Assembly: GCA_021817785.1 (NCBI GenBank)
Contig: JAKAFY010000006.1
Coordinates: forward strand, 2,067-66,066
Length of the DNA: 64,000 nucleotides
Reading direction: 5' to 3'
Source: a bacterium
Lineage (GTDB): Bacteria; Patescibacteriota; Microgenomatia; UBA10105; UBA927
Shown: positions 1 to 9,218 of the stretch, piece by piece
Numbering within the stretch: the stretch's first letter is position 1
Layout of the letters: the number at the start of each line of letters is the position of its first letter
The notes under the pieces: model-generated
The model's database searches: none
The model's input: the letters and a program-made list of their open reading frames with translations, nothing else
Told to the model about the DNA's origin: nothing
Translations under genes and position numbers: made by a program

Positions 1-1351
1 GGTAGGCTGTCATTTTCCGATCCAAATCGCTCTGCAGCCGCTTCTTTTCCGGACCAAGCTTTACTTTTGTGGCAGCTTCTTCCAGATCAATCATGTCAAT
101 CTCTTTTTTATTTTCGCGTGCTGCCAGAATTGCCGATTCGTTTAACATGTTCTCCAAATCCGCGCCGGAAAACCCGACGGTCCGTTTGGCTACCCTGTCC
201 CAATCAACCGCCGATGCAAACGGTTTGCCGTGTGCGTGAATCCCGAGAATGGCTTTCCTGCCTTCCATATCCGGCAAATCGAGTACTACCCGTCTATCAA
301 ACCGTCCGGGCCGAAGCAATGCCGGATCCAGTAAATCTCCGCGATTTGTCGCGGCAACCAGAAGGACTGCTGTATTTGGTTCAAATCCATCCATCTCGAC
401 TAATATCTGGTTGAGCGTCTGTTCGCGCTCATCGTGACCACCCATGATGCCGACACTGCGCATCCTGCCGATGGCGTCAATTTCATCGATAAAGATGATG
501 GCCGGCGCGCTTTTTTTGGCCTGGGCAAACAAATCCCGTACCCGGGCGGCCCCTACTCCGACTAACATTTCCATAAATTCAGAACCAGCAATACTGAAAA
601 ATGCGGTATGTGCCTCTCCTGCCATCGCTTTGGCCAACAACGTCTTTCCGGTTCCGGAAGGCCCCACCAAAATAACGCCTTTGGGGGTTCGTGCACCGAG
701 CGCTTTATATTTTGCAGGATTTTTCAGAAAGTCGACGACCTCTTCCAGTTCTTTTTTGGCATCGTCTACCCCCGCCACATCTTTAAACGTTACCTTGGGC
801 AAATCCTTATTCCAGATACGTGCTTTGCTTTGTCCGAATGAAAAGATGTTGTCCTGTGCGCCTCTTGCTTGCCGAAACAAAAAGAAAAGGAACGCGATGG
901 TCAGGATAAACGGCAACACATTGGAGATAAGCCCGGCCCACATCGTTGCCGCACTCAAGTCTTTTACGTTGATGGAAACTGTCTTGGGGTCTACTCCGGA
1001 TTTTTGTAACACATCGACTAACGAGTCCTGCGACTCTTTGATAGCAGTGTATTTGGTGCCGTCTTTATCCGTTACCGTGAGCTTGGTGTCTTCTACATCA
1101 ATTGACTTTACCTTCCCTGCTTTCACGTCGTTTACTACAGTGGAAAGCGGCTTACTGGTCAGAAGCGATGCCTGGTTGCCGATGCTGCCGAGTATTGAAA
1201 ATATGATAAAGAAGACAAACAGACCGATGACAATATTTTTAAAATTCAACTGCATCTGCAACTGGAAGATTTTTTTGGATTTTTTCCCATTTTTGCCATG
1301 GGCGTGGCCGTTATCAGTATGTTTTCCCGGTGGTGTTTGTTTCTCTGCCAT
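1..1351 (-). CDS. ftsH: ATP-dependent zinc metalloprotease FtsH, N-terminal part; the C-terminus runs off the window start. The plus-strand ORFs listed here are antisense shadows.
   Basis: The minus-strand translation gives an N-terminal TM segment, a Walker A motif ([13 protein letters not shown]), Walker B (IIFIDEIDA), the second region of homology and then LGPEKK.. continuing off the edge. The ATG is at 1351. Confidence 0.9.
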
Positions 1352-1476
1352 ACGTTTATTAATGTCTATTCCCCGATAGGGAATTCTATTCTTATGATCG
1401 CCTGAGGGCGGCGGGTGGCCCGGCGTATTGAGCGTCAAGTATACCACGTTCACCGCTGCATATCACCTGAAGAATA

Positions 1477-3408
1477 TTAACGGATTTTCGCTCCAACTGG
1501 CATCCCGTCTCCGGAAATAAAGAGCGGCTTGGATGTATCCGCACTGTCTACGGCAAGGATCATCCCCTGGCTTTCCTCATCAAGCATTTTCCGGGGCGCC
1601 AGGTTGGTAATAAAGAAAAATTGCTTTCCGTTAAAGTCTTCGGGTGTATATCCAAACCCTCGCACGCCAGTGAATATAATCCTCGGTGTTTCTTCGGCTA
1701 TATCGACGACCAACCGGATGAGTTTTTCACTCCCCTCTTTATTTCGTGCTTCCAAAACTTTTCCCACCCGCACTTCCATTTTGGCAAATTCATCAATACT
1801 AATCGTCATTCTGGCCCGCTTCGCCTCCGCTCCAGCGAGGCGAGCTTGTCCAGAATCAGCCACCTTCGCATGCTTGTGTCCTCCTACTGAGTATTTCGTC
1901 GTCAATCCCACCGCTTCCCGTACGTCACCCATCGTTTTATCTGCCTTTGACATGGCGGCAGTGTATCCGCGCTGGAGTATGCCGCGTACCAATTCTGGAC
2001 TATTTTTCAGTTCTTCGTACGCTTTCCGTGCCGGCGCAAAGTACGTCATCAGGCTTTTAAATAAATAGTCCTTTACCTCAACATCCGACACCTTACCTGC
2101 TACATATGCCTTCTTGAGGGCGTCCACTTTTTTCGGCTCTCCGAAAAATCCAAGATACGTAAACACCATGTTCCCCTCTATATGTCCGGGGTCTGTCGCG
2201 TGCTTTCTCGTCGGATCGGTGTATGTACTGTTCACCTGTTTTCGCAAAACGTCTTCCGATTCAAATATGGAAATGATATTCCCAAGCGATTTACTCATCT
2301 TGCGTTTCCCGTCGGTGCCCAATACTGCCCCGACATCCTCCGGTATCATCGGCTCGGGCAACGTAAATATCTTCTTTTTGTATGTTCTGTTAAACCGCTC
2401 TGCTATGTCGCGCGTAATCTCCACATGCTGCTTCTGATCTTTCCCGACCGGCACAAAATCCGGGTGATACATGAGGATATCTGCCGCCATCAGAATCGGA
2501 TAGTTAAAGAGTCCGAGATTTATGTCGTCTTCCGCGACGTCTTTTTGCAACTTATCTTTGTACGCATGCGCGCGCTTGAGCAGCCCAAGTGGCGTGACAT
2601 TGTTGATGATCGACTGCAATTCCCCATGCAAACCGATATCCGATTGCCGATAAAACACTAATCGATCAAATTCTTCTTTCGACAAAAATCCTTTCAGGAG
2701 GGCGAGCTCATTGAGAATAAGATTCTCGATATTCGTTGCCAGATGCTTTTTGTCCTGAATCGTTGTCAGTCCGTGCATATCCGCGACAAACAGGAAACAT
2801 TCATTGGATTTTGCTATCTGAATAAACTGTTTGACTGCTCCCAAATAATTTCCGATATGCAGCGTCCCGTCCCCGCTTGGGGTGATACCCGATACGATTC
2901 GTTTATCTTTTACGTCTTTAGAGGCGATAACTGTATGAGTCGCGACAACATCACAAAAATCCACAAGATTAACTCCCGGCAATTTCTTTAAGTCGGCTGT
3001 CTTGTAACGAATGGTAACGAGTAGACTTCCAGATCCCGCATTGATATATTCTTTCTCAAATATTTTTTTATCGATGTATGTTGGTACATTCGGAATGTAG
3101 ACACTCGCTGCTCCACTCGGCACACCCGTTATATCAGCAAATTCTTCTTCGTTTGCCATCCGTAATGCAGTTACTCCAAGGTATTTCTTTACCTTCGTAC
3201 TATCTAGCTTTGTGTCTCCCCGTCGGATAATTGCCACAAAGCGATCATCAGCTTTCATGAGCAACGTCGCTGCCGCGTCACCCATACTAAATCCCAAATA
3301 TTTCTGTACCTCTGCGACAGAAATTAATTGCGGGTGTTCAAGCACCTGATGCTCAATTCCAAATTTTATTAACTGGTGAATATAATCCTGAACGGTTTTA
3401 TTATTCAT
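1477..3408 (-). CDS. trpS: Bacterial-type tryptophanyl-tRNA synthetase with an N-terminal YbaK/ProX-like deacylase domain and a C-terminal OB-fold tRNA-binding (Myf/EMAP-like) domain.
   Basis: Core motifs are TPSGDGTLHIGNYLGA (HIGN), YPILMAADIL, VPVGKDQKQHVEITRDIAERFN and KMSKSLGN. The first ~150 aa match the YbaK fold pattern (LLMK..RFVAIIRRGDTKLD..KKYLG..LRMA..EEF..TGVPSGAASV). The last ~100 aa (MEVRVGKVLEA...LIRLVVDI...NLAPRKM..ESQGMILA) match tRNA_bind. Confidence 0.85.
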   Translation of the reverse strand: MNNKTVQDYIHQLIKFGIEHQVLEHPQLISVAEVQKYLGFSMGDAAATLLMKADDRFVAIIRRGDTKLDSTKVKKYLGVTALRMANEEEFADITGVPSGAASVYIPNVPTYIDKKIFEKEYINAGSGSLLVTIRYKTADLKKLPGVNLVDFCDVVATHTVIASKDVKDKRIVSGITPSGDGTLHIGNYLGAVKQFIQIAKSNECFLFVADMHGLTTIQDKKHLATNIENLILNELALLKGFLSKEEFDRLVFYRQSDIGLHGELQSIINNVTPLGLLKRAHAYKDKLQKDVAEDDINLGLFNYPILMAADILMYHPDFVPVGKDQKQHVEITRDIAERFNRTYKKKIFTLPEPMIPEDVGAVLGTDGKRKMSKSLGNIISIFESEDVLRKQVNSTYTDPTRKHATDPGHIEGNMVFTYLGFFGEPKKVDALKKAYVAGKVSDVEVKDYLFKSLMTYFAPARKAYEELKNSPELVRGILQRGYTAAMSKADKTMGDVREAVGLTTKYSVGGHKHAKVADSGQARLAGAEAKRARMTISIDEFAKMEVRVGKVLEARNKEGSEKLIRLVVDIAEETPRIIFTGVRGFGYTPEDFNGKQFFFITNLAPRKMLDEESQGMILAVDSADTSKPLFISGDGMPVGAKIR

Positions 3409-3427
3409 ATGCCTCCTATAATTATAC

Positions 3428-4558
3428 TTAATCCAAATACGATTGTATCGGTCGAGTTAATAAATATACCTCCTTGTCTTGTGCTGCTATTTTTTTCTGC
3501 TGATGAGAGAAAACTACAGAAGTTATACATCGCTTCGCGATTTCCTTTAGTTCCTTCGTCAACAATTCTCCTTTTGTATATCGTGAATACAAATCCTGCA
3601 ACTCGCGGTCGCTTTCTAAGTATGCGCTCAAGAGCGCAAACACCGAACAGGCCTCCGGCACTGCACCGAATTTTCGATGTTCCTCGAGTGAACTGACAGC
3701 ACCCGTAAACGCAGAGGCGATCTTTTTTCCTATCACCTCCGAGGTGTCAGACAAATAAATAGCCGTTTCTGGTTTAGAACCGGACATTTTTTGTTCCGGA
3801 TCTTTAAGACTTGGGAGAAACCGCATGACAAGCTCCGACGGAGGTACCATCCCCATACGTTTTGCCACATCCCGGGCAAGCAAGATATACGGATGCTGAT
3901 CTATGCCAACCGGAATCAGGGTATGTTTCGGTCCGCCAAATTCCGGCAGCTGTGGCATAAGTATTTCTGCAAGCTGCACACACCCTCGATAAAATATCTG
4001 TCCCGGAGTAACAAGTGACTCTTTTCCAAACAGACTTTCCACTTCTGCCATTGAGACATATTTACTCAGCCGCATTGCAAACGGGTACAGCGTTGGGTAT
4101 TCCGTATCTACATAAATATGTGTGCGTTTTGGGTCAAATCCGAAGGCAATAATACTAGGCAATATTTCCTCATACGCTACGCGTTTACTCTCCCCCATCG
4201 TTTGCACTTTACCGTCGATATACGATTCGTCGTTCGTTAGAGGAATATATATTCGTCCCCCTAATTTCTGCAACGACAACAAGAGATCAAATAATATTTG
4301 ATGCCCAAGATGCAGTGTTGATGATGGATTCAATCCCGAAACCACTACGAATTCTTTCTTGTCAGCGATCAATTCCAAAATCGGTTCAAAGTCCAAGTGT
4401 GCGATCACTAAATCACGTTTGAGTTGCCGAAACATAAGATCATCCGGCAGATAAGCCTTAATCCTTCTCATATCAGTCAGACCGTTCTTCACACTTTGAT
4501 CCCGATAATATATTGCCAGCCTTTTTTTGATCGCTATTTTTTCCTGATATTCGTTCAT
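3428..4558 (-). CDS. Second tryptophanyl-tRNA synthetase, archaeal/eukaryotic type.
   Basis: GLNPSSTLHLGH, LTNDESYI, PVGIDQHPYILLARDVAKRMG, KMSGSKPETAIYLSDT and EEHRKFG...YTKGELLTKELKE align motif-for-motif with eukaryotic/archaeal TrpRS (GPSS..HVGH, AIDQDPYF, KMSAS). The start was chosen at MNEYQ, overlapping the stop of the upstream ORF. Confidence 0.8.
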   Translation of the reverse strand: MNEYQEKIAIKKRLAIYYRDQSVKNGLTDMRRIKAYLPDDLMFRQLKRDLVIAHLDFEPILELIADKKEFVVVSGLNPSSTLHLGHQILFDLLLSLQKLGGRIYIPLTNDESYIDGKVQTMGESKRVAYEEILPSIIAFGFDPKRTHIYVDTEYPTLYPFAMRLSKYVSMAEVESLFGKESLVTPGQIFYRGCVQLAEILMPQLPEFGGPKHTLIPVGIDQHPYILLARDVAKRMGMVPPSELVMRFLPSLKDPEQKMSGSKPETAIYLSDTSEVIGKKIASAFTGAVSSLEEHRKFGAVPEACSVFALLSAYLESDRELQDLYSRYTKGELLTKELKEIAKRCITSVVFSHQQKKIAAQDKEVYLLTRPIQSYLD

Positions 4559-5496
4559 ATGCCCTCCAATCCTAGTGGTGTATAGATACACTCACGAAGC
4601 TGACTCAGCGTGTCCTTGGAAATCTTCACACCAAGGAATTCCCGTGCCATTTCTGTAATGGCGTGTATATCTTTCACTGGATGGACGGTGTCCGGGTTTT
4701 CGGATTCAAACGATGTTTCAAGTAATTCCTTTGCCCGTATGAAAGATGTTTCTCCCAGGATGATGCGGAAGTCCTGCAGTTTATTACTCCCCGCCTTGTA
4801 CGGGGTCACCCCGTATTCCTCTATCTCTGGGTGCGTGAGAAAAAATGCGAAATTTTTTCCGAGCGGCTGAGTCGGCGTGAGATATATACTCTTTAATTTT
4901 CCGGGCATAATCTTTTCTCCGGCTTCGTCATAAAATCGCTCCCGTGGGGGTCCGATTTTCATATCAAATAATAATCCGGTCGCGACAGCATCAAGTGCAT
5001 ATCCAAACTTCTTTTTCCGTTCTTCTGCCAACTTATTTGGCAATATGGTTTTAGATAAGAGAGGTTCAATAACCTTTAAATCAACCTTTGCGATTTCGGC
5101 TCGGAGCTTTTTGTATTCATCGGTCATAAATTGTTCACTCATCAAACGAATCTTTATCGGTAATCGGTATACAGCAATGATCTTATTTAATAACTCGATC
5201 CGACTATTTAGTGACGACCTGATGTGCTCCCTCTTTTGAACTGTTGAGTCGTTCATAAACGATGCCGTATCGGCAACCACGACGGTAGCTACTGCTGATA
5301 GTTTTTTCTGAAGATTACTTAACGTAAAGTAATACTTCAGACAATCAATCGGCATACCAAACTCATCGACGGTTTCTCCGTAAAAAAGCCGTATCGGTTT
5401 ATGATTCAATTTAAAATCTCCAAGCGCACCATAGACTCCCCCGCTCTCACGTAGGAAGCGCGCAAATTCGTTCGTTATGACTTTTTGCCTTTTCAT
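4555..5496 (-). CDS. Hypothetical protein, possibly a catalytically degenerate class I (TyrRS/TrpRS-like) aminoacyl-tRNA synthetase paralog.
   Basis: A 313-aa ORF translationally coupled to the euk-type trpS. Its layout resembles the archaeal TyrRS Rossmann core (..VATVVVADTASFMND.. against ..IIILLADLHAYLN..). It has PIDC where HIGH would be and KIMPGK where KMSKS would be. The call is by eye only. Confidence 0.35.
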   Translation of the reverse strand: MKRQKVITNEFARFLRESGGVYGALGDFKLNHKPIRLFYGETVDEFGMPIDCLKYYFTLSNLQKKLSAVATVVVADTASFMNDSTVQKREHIRSSLNSRIELLNKIIAVYRLPIKIRLMSEQFMTDEYKKLRAEIAKVDLKVIEPLLSKTILPNKLAEERKKKFGYALDAVATGLLFDMKIGPPRERFYDEAGEKIMPGKLKSIYLTPTQPLGKNFAFFLTHPEIEEYGVTPYKAGSNKLQDFRIILGETSFIRAKELLETSFESENPDTVHPVKDIHAITEMAREFLGVKISKDTLSQLRECIYTPLGLEGI

Positions 5497-5547
5497 ACCT
5501 CCTTCTTTCTATGAACTATTTACTGGCCATTCTACGAACTAACTCTG

Positions 5548-5618
5548 TGGGATCACTAGGATTTGAACCTAGACTAAGTGTTCTGGAAACACTTGTGCTA
5601 CCGTTACACCATGAACCC
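5548..5618 (-). tRNA. tRNA-Trp (anticodon CCA).
   Basis: The reverse complement folds as a cloverleaf with acceptor GGGTTCA/TGATCCC (one U-U mismatch), anticodon loop TTCCAGA and T-arm CTAGG-TTCAAAT-CCTAG. CCA is not encoded. Confidence 0.7.
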
Positions 5619-6124
5619 AAGGTATTAACTTTTTCCTAAAAATCTCTCCAATATTGACCGCTCTCTTCCACATGGCATCATGTTTCTCTGGCCCTTCGTC
5701 AACCTGCTTGCGACCGGACATGTCTCTTGTATTCGACACAGTTGTACCAATGCTTTCTGAGCTACGACTATCCTTGGCTTCCCAAGCCTGGCATGTTCAG
5801 GTTGGGCGGCTAAAGACCTGATCCGTACATCAGCACACACTCCCACATCCTGCGATATCCCGGCAGCTAGCTTGCGACACTTATCTGTTTCCATTCTCGT
5901 TTGCGTCATATAAATATTGAATACACAACCATCAAAAAAGCCCTTGCACATCCCCAAGAGCCTCTTGTTCTGATGTTTTAAAACATCAAAACAAAACTCT
6001 TTAGAAATCTGCAAGGGCCTTTATTAGCGTTGTTATTCGCGCGTATTCACCTTTCTGTGAACCGTGAACCAATAACTATGAACTAATGAAGGGGTACCAC
6101 CCTTTCTTTGTTGTTCCGCCCACT

Positions 6125-6144
6125 AAAAAACTCCCTTTCGGGAG
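6125..6144 (-). terminator. Candidate intrinsic terminator, active on the minus strand.
   Basis: The minus strand reads CTCCC-GAAA-GGGAG followed by TTTTTT. Confidence 0.4.
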
Positions 6145-6402
6145 TCTGTCACTACTGAGGCGGAAAAACCTCATTATTGACATACTCCGACCTCGTCCAC
6201 CGTAGCTTATGCGAAGGTGGATTCGCGACATATGTTGACAGTCTTTTTACGGTTTCACCTCCGGATAAGACATTCTTTCGATAGCCCTATCAGCGTTTAG
6301 CTCTCGCTAATTGAGGAAATCCCAATCAATCCCCTCACCGCTTGTATTCACTTGTGAGGATATAGTATAGCACACCTGTCAAAATCACAACATATTTTGC
6401 CT

Positions 6403-6431
6403 TTGCTGAGCGTCATGCATTGCGCTATAAT
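6403..6431 (+). promoter_or_regulatory. Sigma70-like promoter for the downstream tRNA.
   Basis: TTGCTG (6403-6408), a 17-nt spacer, then TATAAT (6426-6431), about 20 nt upstream of the tRNA 5' end. Confidence 0.4.
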
Positions 6432-6451
6432 ACTCATGCACATTCATATAC

Positions 6452-6521
6452 CGCGGGGTAGTGTAAAGTCGCACAGGAGGCTCATAATCTCCTAGGCCGG
6501 GTGCGATTCCCGGCCCCGCAA
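6452..6521 (+). tRNA. tRNA-Met (anticodon CAT), with an initiator-like C1:A72 mismatch.
   Basis: Acceptor CGCGGGG/CCCCGCA, anticodon arm GGAGG-CTCATAA-TCTCC and T-arm CCGGG-TGCGATT-CCCGG. Confidence 0.7.
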
Positions 6522-6533
6522 CAGATAGTAAAT

Positions 6534-6559
6534 AGCGCCTATACAGGCGCTATTTTTTT
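6534..6559 (+). terminator. Intrinsic terminator after the tRNA-Met gene.
   Basis: AGCGCC-tataca-GGCGCT followed by ATTTTTTT. Confidence 0.55.
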
Positions 6560-7410
6560 ATCGATTCCAGCCATGATATGAGATACGTTCCGGTGCGCGC
6601 GCCAGGCCGCAGCCGAAGCAGGGTAAACCGATAATCCGGCGATTGTATGATCCCCGGCCGAGTCGTGGTAGCGGTCCGAAATCCTGCGGCAGATACGGCA
6701 ATTACCGCAGCCGAATCATAGGATCCATACGGATACGCAAAATCAATCACCGGTTTTCCGATCAGATGTTCTAATTGCGTTTTGCTTCCGTAAATTTCCG
6801 CGTGCAAAAGTTGCGGTGATATTCCTTTGAGACTCACATGGTGCACGGTGTGGGCTGCCACTTCCACTAGCCCGCTGGATGCGATATCCATCACTTCCTG
6901 TTTTGTCATATAGTTTGGTTTATCTAAAAATCCTGGTACCACGTAGGACGTTGCTTTCACATGATATTTTTGCAATATCGGGTAGGCATCCGTATAAAAA
7001 TCCCGATATCCGTCATCAAACGTAAAAACGATCGGCTTATCGGGCAATGTCCCTTTTCCGTCCAGATATGCCGCCAGATCACTCATAAATATCGGGGTAT
7101 ACCCATGAGACAGAAAGGTGGCAATTTGTGCATCCATCGTTTTCGGCAAAATATCCAGCCCTTCACGGATGGTGTCTTTCGGGTCTTTCACGATTTCCAC
7201 ATAGTGATACATCAGTATTGGCACGCGCACAGGCTGTACAAGCACGGGGCGCGCGGTGGGTGTGGGAATTGGGCGTTCTGTCGGGCGTATGAAAAGATAC
7301 GGAAGATGCAAAATGGTTCTGCCGCTTTTCGGCATCGTTACGATGCTCCACGTTCCTATCCCAAAACAGATACAAAGTATCACAATGCCCGCTGTTAATT
7401 TGGTATTCAT
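6550..7410 (-). CDS. Polysaccharide deacetylase (NodB homology domain, CE4), membrane-anchored.
   Basis: TFDDGYRD, HTVHH and an N-terminal TM segment. Confidence 0.85.
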   Translation of the reverse strand: MNTKLTAGIVILCICFGIGTWSIVTMPKSGRTILHLPYLFIRPTERPIPTPTARPVLVQPVRVPILMYHYVEIVKDPKDTIREGLDILPKTMDAQIATFLSHGYTPIFMSDLAAYLDGKGTLPDKPIVFTFDDGYRDFYTDAYPILQKYHVKATSYVVPGFLDKPNYMTKQEVMDIASSGLVEVAAHTVHHVSLKGISPQLLHAEIYGSKTQLEHLIGKPVIDFAYPYGSYDSAAVIAVSAAGFRTATTTRPGIIQSPDYRFTLLRLRPGARTGTYLISWLESIKK

Positions 7411-7515
7411 AGAGCAGATTATACCGTATCCTCACGCTTCCTGCGTTGCCTTTTCCTGGGTATTTTCGTAAAATGAAGCCTACAGCCCACCTTCGCTAAA
7501 GCTTCGGCGGGCAAT

Positions 7516-7587
7516 GCCAGCGTAGCTCAGTGGTAGAGCAGTGTCTTCATAAGGCATTTGTCGCAAGTCCGATCCTTGCCGCTGGCA
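7516..7587 (+). tRNA. tRNA with anticodon CAT (elongator Met or Ile2/lysidine type).
   Basis: GCCAGCG-TA-GCTCAGTGGTAGAGC, anticodon arm GTGTC-TTCATAA-GGCAT (two G-U pairs), T-arm GCAAG-TCCGATC-CTTGC and acceptor 3' strand CGCTGGC-A. Confidence 0.7.
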
Positions 7588-7637
7588 CCCGATCCCCTAC
7601 CGGTATTCGCATACCAAAAGCGTGTCCACATGGACGT

Positions 7638-9218
7638 TTAAAAATATCCGCTTCGTATGAGTTGTTGTTGCGTATTCCCATACGGAATCTGCATAAATGG
7701 TGACGGAAGCAACAGCTCGGGAACGGCCGCGCGTATCAGGACATCGCGATATTGTTTTACAATCTGCCTGTGGGAATTCGCTATATTATGTAATTCTTCG
7801 GGATCGCTTCGCAAATCATATAGTTCAGGCTTTTTTTGCGGATCCCGATACACAATCAACGCATAGCGCCGATTCTGGATAACAAACGTATCCTCATAGT
7901 TCATGGACACGGCATACGATTTTGCGCGATACGAAACGCCGGACAACAGCGGGATCAATGACATTCCCTGTATGTATTTGGGCGCAGCCCCGACAACCAT
8001 TGCGGCAATCGTCGGATAGAGATCGAGATTTTCGACTACTGTATCTACATGCCCTCCCCTACTGCCTGGATACGTTATGACGAACGGCACATGATATACC
8101 TCGTTATAAGGAGCATCCATATGGGAAAAGAGTCCGTGTTCACCAAATGCCTCTCCGTGCGCCGCCGTCACGATGATCACGGTATGATTGGCCACGTCAG
8201 GTTTCAATAAATAATCCACAAATCCTGAAAGGCGCGTATCCAATATGTGCAGCTTTGTCTCATAAAGCATCCGAAGGTATGCGACCTCCTGCGGATTATC
8301 TGCATGGATAAACTGCATGTATGGATCATATACGGTTTCCCACGAAAGCAACCGTTGCGTATAGTCATGATTATCTATAAGCTCCTGCAAATAATCCGCG
8401 ATTTTTTTACCACGTATTGAAGGGTCTGCCTGAAAAATTTCTGGGTGCTCCGCTATGGCAGCCGGTACGAATATTTGCCCGACGTGAGCAGATAAGTATG
8501 CCTCGCGGACACGCATAAATTCATCCGTATAAATGGGAAAGCCATCGGGCTTGGGCAAATTCCGGATTGGCCGTTCGGGCGGAACCAACAGGTACGGTAA
8601 ATGCAATTCCTCTGTATATGCGTGGAAAAACACCGGTTTATTTATGGCTACCGCCTGCTTATATTCGTCTATCCATATGTTTTCTGCCGGCGAACTCAAA
8701 TCTGTGTGGACATAGCCACGTAACCCTCCGTTACGTTTGGTTAATAATGCGTCATTATCGTCTCCGATATAATACGTGTCATACCCCTGTTGACCAAGAA
8801 ATTGAGCGAGGGTGACTGTCGTAGGAGAGAGGGCTCCTTCCTGCTGTTTCCAGACTTGATTGATGTTGGGGTATAATGACGTATAGGTAGACAAGGCGCT
8901 CGGCAACGTCCAAAACGATTGGCTATACGCTTGTGAAAACTGCACCCCCGCAGAGGCGAGCCTGCACAAATTTGGAGCAATCTCTTTTCCCTTCCCGTTA
9001 CAATCCAGCTCATCGGCGCGGAGGACGTCCAAATCCAGGATAACCACGTTGCAGTGCCTGCAACCGACGCGTGCGGCAGCGACATGCTCCACGACCCTGC
9101 GGCACATGATGGCTATGGAAATGAGGGCTGCACAAACGCAAATCAGCACCCCCGCTTTTTGTACCCCTGTCCATACCGCTGTTATGTTGTATTTCTTCGG
9201 GTATATAGGATTGTTCAT
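7638..9218 (-). CDS. Sulfatase-like hydrolase/transferase (alkaline phosphatase superfamily), membrane-anchored. It lacks the C/S-x-P-x-R formylglycine motif.
   Basis: VVILDLDVLRADELDCNG...APNLCRLA and a C-terminal HGEAFGEHG. TLPS sits where CTPSR would be. Confidence 0.7.
   Translation of the reverse strand: MNNPIYPKKYNITAVWTGVQKAGVLICVCAALISIAIMCRRVVEHVAAARVGCRHCNVVILDLDVLRADELDCNGKGKEIAPNLCRLASAGVQFSQAYSQSFWTLPSALSTYTSLYPNINQVWKQQEGALSPTTVTLAQFLGQQGYDTYYIGDDNDALLTKRNGGLRGYVHTDLSSPAENIWIDEYKQAVAINKPVFFHAYTEELHLPYLLVPPERPIRNLPKPDGFPIYTDEFMRVREAYLSAHVGQIFVPAAIAEHPEIFQADPSIRGKKIADYLQELIDNHDYTQRLLSWETVYDPYMQFIHADNPQEVAYLRMLYETKLHILDTRLSGFVDYLLKPDVANHTVIIVTAAHGEAFGEHGLFSHMDAPYNEVYHVPFVITYPGSRGGHVDTVVENLDLYPTIAAMVVGAAPKYIQGMSLIPLLSGVSYRAKSYAVSMNYEDTFVIQNRRYALIVYRDPQKKPELYDLRSDPEELHNIANSHRQIVKQYRDVLIRAAVPELLLPSPFMQIPYGNTQQQLIRSGYF

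Follow-up and report, generated by a model that had tools for sequence, protein, structure and literature searches.

The ORF1 companion of an archaeal-type tryptophanyl-tRNA synthetase in Patescibacteria: a predicted class Ic synthetase fold without the ATP-binding motifs

An archaeal-type tryptophanyl-tRNA synthetase (TrpRS), termed TrpRS-A, was described in Microgenomates and some DPANN archaea by Mukai, Reynolds, Crnkovic and Soll (2017, Life 7:8; PMC5370408), whose passages on the system give an operon running tRNATrp(A73)-'ORF1'-TrpRS-A1 and then either a bacterial TrpRS or, ahead of the operon, a trp repressor. According to those passages, ORF1 is without sequence similarity to known proteins, carries HIGH-like and KMSKS-like motifs that suggest a class I homolog, and was proposed either to bind TrpRS-A or to form a heterodimer resembling the double-length TyrRS of Leishmania; Trp residues were noted to be absent from proteins of the ORF1 operon, 12 instances of TrpRS-A were given, and for ORF1 a Rossmann fold was reported missing, the best template being 70 residues of CysRS. 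The present analysis concerns such an operon in a member of the Patescibacteriota (class Microgenomatia), within a 64,000-nucleotide stretch of contig JAKAFY010000006.1 that was analysed as a whole and is referred to as the window, and in particular its open reading frame (ORF) of 313 aa at 4555..5496 on the minus strand, here called ORF313. ORF313 is 39% identical (BLASTP E 9e-78) to the ORF1 of Ca. Beckwithbacteria RBG_13_42_9, which lies at 2955..4004 of locus L066 between a tRNA-Trp gene and the TrpRS-A P0144, and it belongs to the ORF1 family, known since 2017. So far as the published passages describe ORF1, the two share their gene order, a source of Microgenomates type within the candidate phyla radiation (CPR) and Trp-free proteins, with no difference in kind. 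What is added to that description is the full class Ic fold, by AlphaFold2 prediction and Foldseek search, and a distribution over 57 species-level genomes and 154 clusters, compared with the 12 TrpRS-A instances given there; natural ORF1-TrpRS-A fusions and a universal residue core likewise do not feature in that paper's passages on ORF1. No later paper on ORF1 was found in a literature search, and a 2022 review (PMC9437257) cites the tRNATrp(A73)/TrpRS-A pair just as naturally orthogonal.

At the level of sequence, ORF313 resembles nothing that has been named. It has no Pfam or NCBIfam match, neither the protein nor a profile of 66 family sequences matches a PDB sequence (phmmer and hmmsearch), and comparison of the family profile with 80 TrpRS-A sequences returned an hhalign probability of ~0 in both global and local modes, so that a residue-level sequence alignment of ORF1 with TrpRS is unreliable. 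Only two Pfam families are matched by more than two of the 66 members, each of them faintly and in three members: tRNA-synt_1b (PF00579; best E 0.035) and the cyclodipeptide synthases (CDPS, PF16715; best E 0.012, below the Pfam threshold). RecA matches in the PDB profile search were rejected as an artefact of weak matches summed across repeated fusion chains, and the columns in which MAFFT overlays the ORF1 and TrpRS families when many ORF1 sequences are included were neither trusted nor used. Nevertheless, the predicted structure is that of a synthetase. The AlphaFold2 model of ORF313, built from the 66-sequence alignment, has a mean predicted local distance difference test score (pLDDT) of 91.8 and a predicted template modelling score (pTM) of 0.90, and the top 50 Foldseek matches to it in the PDB are exclusively TyrRS and TrpRS, with probability 1.00 and E values down to 8e-9. 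These matches span the full length of the protein, with a template modelling (TM) score of ~0.6 across ~330 aligned columns at 10-15% identity, and include the TyrRS of N. equitans, A. pernix, M. jannaschii and human, the TrpRS of human and E. cuniculi, and the double-length TyrRS of Leishmania (3p0j). The model runs strand 1, helix, strand 2, long helix, strand 3, CP1 helices, strand 4, helix, strand 5, loop and C-terminal helices, the last forming a helical domain at residues 252-305, and the same order is seen in the TrpRS half of a modelled ORF1-TrpRS-A fusion protein. By these predictions ORF313 has the full class Ic (TyrRS/TrpRS) synthetase fold, comprising a Rossmann domain, a CP1 insertion and a C-terminal helical domain. 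A sequence-only reading of the window had already likened the product to class I synthetases, on the strength of an alignment made by eye, and had proposed structure prediction and a structure search as the check; the likeness is borne out as one of fold, with a Rossmann class Ic architecture and only TyrRS/TrpRS among the 50 best PDB matches, and the alignment itself finds no counterpart in the Pfam, NCBIfam, PDB and hhalign comparisons.

Class I synthetases need HIGH, GxDQ and a canonical KMSKS for ATP-dependent activation of an amino acid. The corresponding positions in ORF313 were inferred from the topology of the AlphaFold2 models, ORF313 being set against the TrpRS half of the fusion, and not from a residue-level structural alignment. 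On this basis the equivalent of HIGH is P49-I50-D51-C52 (5341..5352, minus strand), just ahead of, or at, the N-terminus of helix A after strand 1, where the family consensus is T-I-D-S, D51 is universal and no His is conserved; ahead of it, Y39-G40-E41-T42-x-D44-x-x-G47 is invariant. The equivalent of GxDQ, the motif that binds ribose, is G182-P183-P184-R185 (4942..4953, minus strand), which sits at the end of strand 4, is followed by a helix in both models and lies within the universal signature K180-x-G-P-x-x-E186-x-x-Y189-D190. The loop equivalent to KMSKS, K234-A-G-S237-N238 (4783..4797, minus strand), follows strand 5 within a conserved Y233-K-A-G-S-N-K239 and leads into a short strand, R244-I-I-L, in parallel with KMSGSKPETAIYL of the adjacent TrpRS; it keeps just the first Lys and one Ser of the motif, which reads KMSAS or KMSGS in TrpRS of archaeal type, and Y233, K234, S237 and R244 are universal across paralogs. 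The sequence-only reading had put PIDC at the HIGH position, which agrees with the topological equivalence, and KIMPGK at that of KMSKS, which does not: K195-I-M-P-G-K200 (4897..4914, minus strand) belongs to a variable, gapped loop before strand 5, where columns 281-290 of alignment A1 are unconserved and the window sequence has a gap of 8. Given the loss of HIGH, GxDQ and canonical KMSKS, activation of an amino acid with ATP by ORF1 is very unlikely, and ORF313 very probably cannot make an aminoacyl-adenylate.

Loss of these motifs has not been accompanied by loss of constraint. The 66-sequence alignment contains 26 invariant columns, and some 24 residues, for the most part with polar, charged or aromatic side chains, are kept across the CPR group A1 (31 sequences), the DPANN group A2 (27) and a paralog, B (12), although overall identity between these groups is only 25-30%. 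The shared core consists of G40, T42, D44, G47, D51, K54, Y55, D76, S120, Y166, K180, G182, P183, E186, Y189, D190, P211, G229, Y233, K234, S237, R244, L258 and D276. Nearly all of these residues map to the C-terminal ends of the Rossmann strands, to the starts of the helices that follow and to the KMSKS loop, which together make up the old active-site crevice. A polar crevice that is conserved across such distant paralogs is unlike an inert scaffold, and the description of ORF313 as catalytically dead is therefore doubtful: the loss of HIGH and KMSKS on which it was founded stands, the deadness does not follow from it, and the conservation looks more like that of an enzyme or of a specific ligand binder.

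The family to which ORF313 belongs is rare and spans two domains of life. A word-indexed search of a 5.8-billion-protein database found 138 homologs at E<=1e-3, all unnamed or 'hypothetical' and from Patescibacteria/Microgenomates; together with the invariant columns, these establish the 313-aa ORF as a real gene, its minus-strand orientation having been left unstated by the sequence-only reading. An exhaustive hidden Markov model search of 1.84 billion cluster representatives gave just 154 clusters (50% identity) at the same threshold, which marks the family as rare, and a scan of one genome per species gave 57 loci. The CPR hosts include Shapirobacteria, Woesebacteria, Dojkabacteria, Microgenomates and others, and the DPANN hosts Woesearchaeota, Nanoarchaeota, Aenigmarchaeota, Micrarchaeota and Nanohaloarchaea. 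Among the records with a CPR-type operon, many bear the title 'uncultured Gammaproteobacteria' or 'Pseudomonadales' (third party annotation assemblies; L005-L023 and others), and some titled 'Saccharibacteria' carry a DPANN-type four-gene cluster, so the titles look unreliable for taxonomy. The ORF313 sequence itself occurs, identical, on 12 contigs from several samples.

Throughout this range ORF1 is tied to TrpRS-A. Of the 58 full-length family genes in 61 loci from CPR bacteria and DPANN archaea, 53 are followed directly by TrpRS-A on the same strand, and the remaining ones lie at contig ends. Pairwise distances within ORF1 and within TrpRS-A correlate (r = 0.84), in keeping with the co-evolution of the two reported in the ORF1 passages of PMC5370408. 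Furthermore, the two are found as a single chain. In-frame ORF1-TrpRS-A fusions occur in Micrarchaeota (L057, 698 aa; L059, 731 aa), the protein database holds four distinct fusion proteins of 730-731 aa (P0121-P0124, 56-100% identity), and a CPR-type fusion of 778 aa with a linker of ~100 residues is present on a single contig (P0257/L007); in these fusions the degenerate module is N-terminal. Independent fusions of this kind indicate a direct functional link, probably a physical one, between ORF1 and TrpRS-A.

In the window the operon order is tRNATrp(A73), ORF313, archaeal-type TrpRS and bacterial-type TrpRS, all on the minus strand. The first element, a tRNA-Trp with anticodon CCA, lies at 5547..5618 (ARAGORN; Rfam RF00005, 61.8 bits at 5548..5618) and is separated by 50 nt from ORF313, whose ATG at 5496 is preceded, one base away, by a Shine-Dalgarno-like GGAGG at 5498..5502 (direct reading agaaagaaGGAGGtATGaaa). 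The ORF313 stop (TGA, 4557..4555) and the TrpRS-A start (ATG, 4558..4556) share three bases in an ATGA at 4555..4558, the overlap that the sequence-only reading had reported; a GGAGGG, read directly from the sequence, lies within the 3' end of ORF313 at 4562..4567, ahead of the TrpRS-A start, and equivalent 4-nt stop/start overlaps are present in the related loci L001 and L002. The co-expression that had been deduced from the overlap is thus upheld by it and by the 53 of 58 family genes with TrpRS-A directly downstream. TrpRS-A1 (3428..4558, 376 aa) has HLGH, GIDQ and KMSGS intact. The mechanical ORF list starts it at a GTG at 4591, and its database twin P0127, also of 376 aa, fits the ATG at 4558. 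Its matches (Pfam PF00579, 3.4e-34; NCBIfam TIGR00233, 214.8 bits where 176.75 is the cutoff; PRK12285 among the best models) bear out its earlier classification as a eukaryal-type TrpRS, of archaeal/eukaryal type in the terms used here, and P0144, its counterpart in Ca. Beckwithbacteria RBG_13_42_9, shares 58% identity with it. A bacterial-type TrpRS of 643 aa (1477..3408; NCBIfam trpS, 269 bits) follows 20 nt downstream. The upstream tRNA-Trp(A73), this downstream bacterial-type TrpRS and the identity of ORF313 with the ORF1 of PMC5370408 had all been passed over in the sequence-only reading.

The acceptor stem of the tRNA itself, GGGUUCA/UGAUCCC followed by A, gives G1-C72 and A73, the archaeal/eukaryal identity set, as opposed to the bacterial A1-U72/G73. 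At least 24 related loci have a same-strand tRNA-Trp with G1-C72/A73 upstream of ORF1, which in CPR loci is its immediate neighbour, and a second tRNA-Trp, where one is nearby (L002, L021, L024), has the bacterial A1-U72/G73. A U4.U69 mismatch in the acceptor stem is kept in the subclade of the window (also L005, L013, L015, L018 and L020), and the tRNA-Trp(A73) of other clades has a perfect stem, GGGUGGA/UCCACCC. In L001 (5926..6001) and L002 (5926..6003, with an encoded CCA) the 3' end of the tRNA-Trp abuts the called ATG of ORF1, which would confine any ribosome-binding site to the tRNA; the ORF1 start may be mis-called in these two loci, or tRNA processing may be linked to translation initiation. 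Four loci titled Woesearchaeota have an opposite-strand tRNA-Trp beside ORF1 (L027 5795..5865, L037 5825..5895, L039 3018..3088 and L051 5777..5847), and by a simple stem analysis, unchecked by hand, these show a mixed identity set of G1-C72 with G73.

ORF313, TrpRS-A and the bacterial-type TrpRS contain no Trp in 1332 residues (313, 376 and 643; 1477..5496), whereas in the window's remaining 48 long ORFs Trp amounts to 1.6% (P about 5e-10 for a Trp-free trio), and 60 of the 66 ORF1 family members are Trp-free. A Trp-repressor gene lies upstream in L003, and the ORF1 passages of PMC5370408 place a trp repressor ahead of the operon in some loci. The Trp-free trio fits expression under limiting Trp-tRNA, and together with the trp-repressor linkage it assigns the module to the supply of Trp-tRNA when Trp is scarce. 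The TrpRS-A module is always accompanied by a housekeeping TrpRS.

Given the obligate linkage, the co-evolution and the fusions, a complex of ORF1 with TrpRS-A is the most economical reading, and we give about an even chance to ORF1 being an adenylation-incompetent partner subunit of TrpRS-A, a role that the sequence-only reading had also entertained and that the linkage makes plausible. ORF1 would be a very diverged Trp/Tyr-tRNA synthetase paralog in which the architecture was kept and every ATP-binding motif was replaced, HIGH by T/P-I-D-S/C, GxDQ by G-P-P-R and KMSKS by K-A-G-S-N. Made from one transcript, tRNA-Trp(A73), ORF1 and TrpRS-A would constitute a second Trp-charging module beside the bacterial-type TrpRS. 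TrpRS is normally homodimeric, and ORF1 would bind TrpRS-A, whether by taking the place of one subunit to form a pseudo-dimer or by joining the enzyme as an added subunit. Its remodelled crevice may hold the acceptor end of the tRNA, or tryptophan or a tryptophanyl moiety, and ORF1 may assist or tune the formation of Trp-tRNA when tryptophan is scarce. The analysis shows the fold, the loss of motifs, the obligate linkage, the fusions and the lack of Trp; the binding of ORF1 to TrpRS-A, its stoichiometry and the ligand of the crevice are points that we infer.

The closest precedent for such an arrangement is the double-length TyrRS of Leishmania and other trypanosomatids (3p0j; Larson et al. 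2011, as cited in the ORF1 passages of PMC5370408), in which a catalytic and a degenerate class Ic module are combined, as TrpRS-A and ORF1 would be. The single-chain form of this pairing is seen in the Micrarchaeota fusions and on one CPR contig; in the window there are two genes. Two further differences from the Leishmania enzyme are the N-terminal place of the degenerate module in the fusions and the anticodon-binding domain that TrpRS-A keeps for itself. Several observations weigh against a partner subunit of this kind. Since TrpRS-A retains that domain and all of its catalytic motifs, it lacks nothing evident that a partner would have to supply. In ORF1 it is the former active-site crevice that is conserved, and the C-terminal domain only weakly so, the reverse of how the work is divided in the Leishmania TyrRS. 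The fusions prove a functional link, not a pseudo-dimer. When the fusion P0121 was modelled with AlphaFold2 from an unpaired multiple sequence alignment, both halves folded well (pLDDT 87.7) and the TrpRS half gave a TM of 0.81 to A. pernix TrpRS, but pTM was only 0.60 and superposition on the Leishmania pseudo-dimer 3p0j gave a root mean square deviation of 25 A and a TM of 0.33; the model thus did not recover the dimer geometry canonical for class Ic, which it neither confirms nor rules out. Lastly, a gene for an M28 peptidase stands between ORF1 and TrpRS-A in at least three DPANN loci, and strict translational coupling of the two is therefore not universal.

The DPANN loci differ from those of the CPR in having a larger cluster, typified by L035 (3510..8078) and found in similar form in L031, L036, L038, L040, L041, L042, L045, L049, L052 and L061. 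Its four class Ic genes encode a divergent enzyme (420-500 aa) that resembles TrpRS and has motifs similar to HIGH, GxDQ and KMSAS, the ORF1 paralog B (25-31% identity), the ORF1 ortholog and TrpRS-A. The divergent upstream synthetase is the 'TrpRS-A-like' of Mukai et al. 2017, as far as that paper's account of it goes (PMC5370408); an assignment as TyrRS, by which TyrRS and TrpRS would each have had a partner, was rejected on its best scores, which are against TrpRS models. The arrangement suggests two parallel enzyme-partner pairs. The inserted M28-family peptidase (~260 aa) lies at L028 3815..4600, L036 6896..7705, L048 6921..7700 and L042 ~6899..7684. A chorismate mutase type II (CM_2) domain forms the C-terminal part of a ~230-260-aa protein that adjoins the cluster in 10 DPANN-type loci and in 0 CPR loci (L036 8849..9550; L035 8067..8858, minus strand; L046 8076..8771; also L027, L031, L038, L049, L053, L059 and L060), and a 485-aa protein, P0378, joins a CM_2 domain to an ORF1-like domain, very divergent with an E of 3.3e-4 against the family profile, in which several core residues are missing. 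Other DPANN neighbours are a class I/II aminotransferase, an enolase-superfamily (MR_MLE) protein, an M15 dipeptidase, an Asp/Glu racemase and an octopine-type dehydrogenase. Judged from gene content, this neighbourhood is one of amino-acid and peptide metabolism. CPR genomes have tRNA, ORF1 and TrpRS-A alone, with no tailoring genes.

The conserved crevice raises the possibility that ORF1 is itself catalytic. Cyclodipeptide synthases use a class Ic Rossmann scaffold from which HIGH and KMSKS have been lost, and they act on aminoacyl-tRNA and not on ATP; they are not known to have a C-terminal helical domain or a link to a synthetase or tRNA gene. By analogy, ORF1 could be an active enzyme that transfers or modifies the tryptophanyl moiety of Trp-tRNATrp(A73), fed by the dedicated tRNA and TrpRS-A. 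The ~24-residue core kept at the strand ends and the KMSKS loop speaks for this, as do the faint CDPS matches in three members (best E 0.012), the accessory character of a TrpRS-A module that always has a housekeeping TrpRS alongside, and the DPANN extras, where an additional TrpRS-like enzyme and ORF1 paralog, often joined by an M28 peptidase and a CM_2 protein, resemble a small pathway. G40-x-T42 after strand 1 also resembles, as a lead only, the G-x-S catalytic serine motif of the CDPS AlbC. However, the Trp-free composition, the Trp-repressor linkage and the adjacent housekeeping TrpRS point to translation supply and not to a secondary product, the CPR genomes lack tailoring genes around the trio, ORF1 keeps the C-terminal domain that CDPSs lack and is linked to synthetase and tRNA genes, and the CDPS matches are sub-threshold, no CDPS structure being among the top 50 Foldseek PDB matches of ORF313. 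Such a CDPS-like activity is accordingly considered unlikely, although it is the foremost of the alternatives. Rather unlikely, and a shade behind it, is the broader proposal that ORF1 represents a new class of tRNA-dependent enzyme on the TrpRS/TyrRS scaffold, acting on Trp-tRNATrp or on the acceptor end through a catalytic constellation of its own, for which G-x-T...D...D-x-x-K-Y, K-x-G-P-x-x-E-x-x-Y-D and Y-K-x-x-S...R are put forward; the DPANN pair of TrpRS-A-like and B would then do likewise on another substrate. Were this true, it would mean an unrecognised aminoacyl-tRNA-dependent pathway common to CPR bacteria and DPANN archaea.

A crevice conserved despite the loss of the ATP motifs could also belong to a sensor, that is, a pseudo-TrpRS that binds tryptophan or a related aromatic in its old pocket and regulates the enzyme to which it is attached or with which it is co-expressed. 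ORF1-like domains are fused to two enzymes of aromatic amino acids, TrpRS-A and, in P0378, chorismate mutase type II, the CM_2-domain protein adjoins the cluster in 10 DPANN loci, and L003 has its upstream Trp-repressor gene. Given that the ORF1-like domain of P0378 is very divergent and lacks several core residues, and that the conserved acidic and basic residues are more numerous than a simple Trp pocket requires, we regard a sensor as improbable; the Trp-binding residues of class Ic enzymes cannot be mapped onto ORF1, because the sequence alignment fails. The sequence-only reading had also offered an immunity factor. Second copies of TrpRS do give indolmycin resistance in some actinomycetes (PMC9437257), and a protein without catalytic motifs could be either a resistance factor against a TrpRS-targeting antibiotic or a decaying duplicate. 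Neither reading agrees with the conservation and context, on which both were rejected as highly improbable: strong purifying selection across two domains of life excludes decay, the linkage is specific to TrpRS-A and not to the housekeeping enzyme, and no antibiotic biosynthesis genes are evident among the neighbours listed or scanned in related loci or the genes immediately around the window operon, where the Trp-free proteins, and in some loci the Trp repressor, point to Trp supply.

Accessory TrpRS enzymes are known from other bacteria, and the comparison sets the ORF1 module apart. Deinococcus TrpRS II, with nitric oxide synthase, and the indolmycin-resistant TrpRS of Streptomyces (PMC9437257) are likewise second TrpRS enzymes beside a housekeeping one, and one of them works in complex with another protein; unlike TrpRS-A they are bacterial-type, use a normal tRNATrp and have neither a dedicated tRNA nor a synthetase-fold partner. 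With tRNATrp(A73)/TrpRS-A, a single bacterium has two orthogonal synthetase-tRNA pairs serving the same amino acid, a situation of which nature offers few examples. As ORF1 is the invariable third component, the pair can be neither understood nor reused for genetic-code engineering without an account of its role. As a pseudo-dimer partner, ORF1 would make the module a prokaryotic counterpart, split over two genes, of the double-length TyrRS of trypanosomatids, and would show an obligate homodimer becoming asymmetric; as an enzyme, it would put the synthetase scaffold to a new use. Concrete constructs and mutants follow from the class Ic fold, the natural fusions and the universal residues, which makes the function of ORF1 directly testable.

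The remaining observations concern the surroundings of the operon. The bacterial-type TrpRS at 1477..3408 consists of an N-terminal YbaK-like editing domain, a TrpRS core and, at the C-terminus, a domain of the Trbp111/EMAP tRNA-binding type (Pfam tRNA_edit, tRNA-synt_1b and tRNA_bind); an editing domain is not normally known in TrpRS. In related loci the YbaK and TrpRS domains occur together with or without the C-terminal domain, and L066 has the tRNA_bind domain as a gene of its own. No T-box, riboswitch or convincing internal terminator was found at the operon (Rfam scan of 1..8000; promoter and terminator scan of 1300..6600). Upstream of the tRNA-Trp gene, a hairpin-forming stretch of ~90 nt (5934..6024, minus strand) may be a structured operon leader; it has weak, sub-threshold matches to plant and animal miRNA precursors (best 26.7 bits, E 0.066) that are almost certainly due to chance. 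Two tRNA-Met(CAT) genes, at 6452..6522 and 7515..7590 on the plus strand, lie just upstream of the operon, and tRNA-Met and tRNA-Ile(TAT) recur near it in other CPR loci (L010, L011, L016, L019, L022, L032 and L066).

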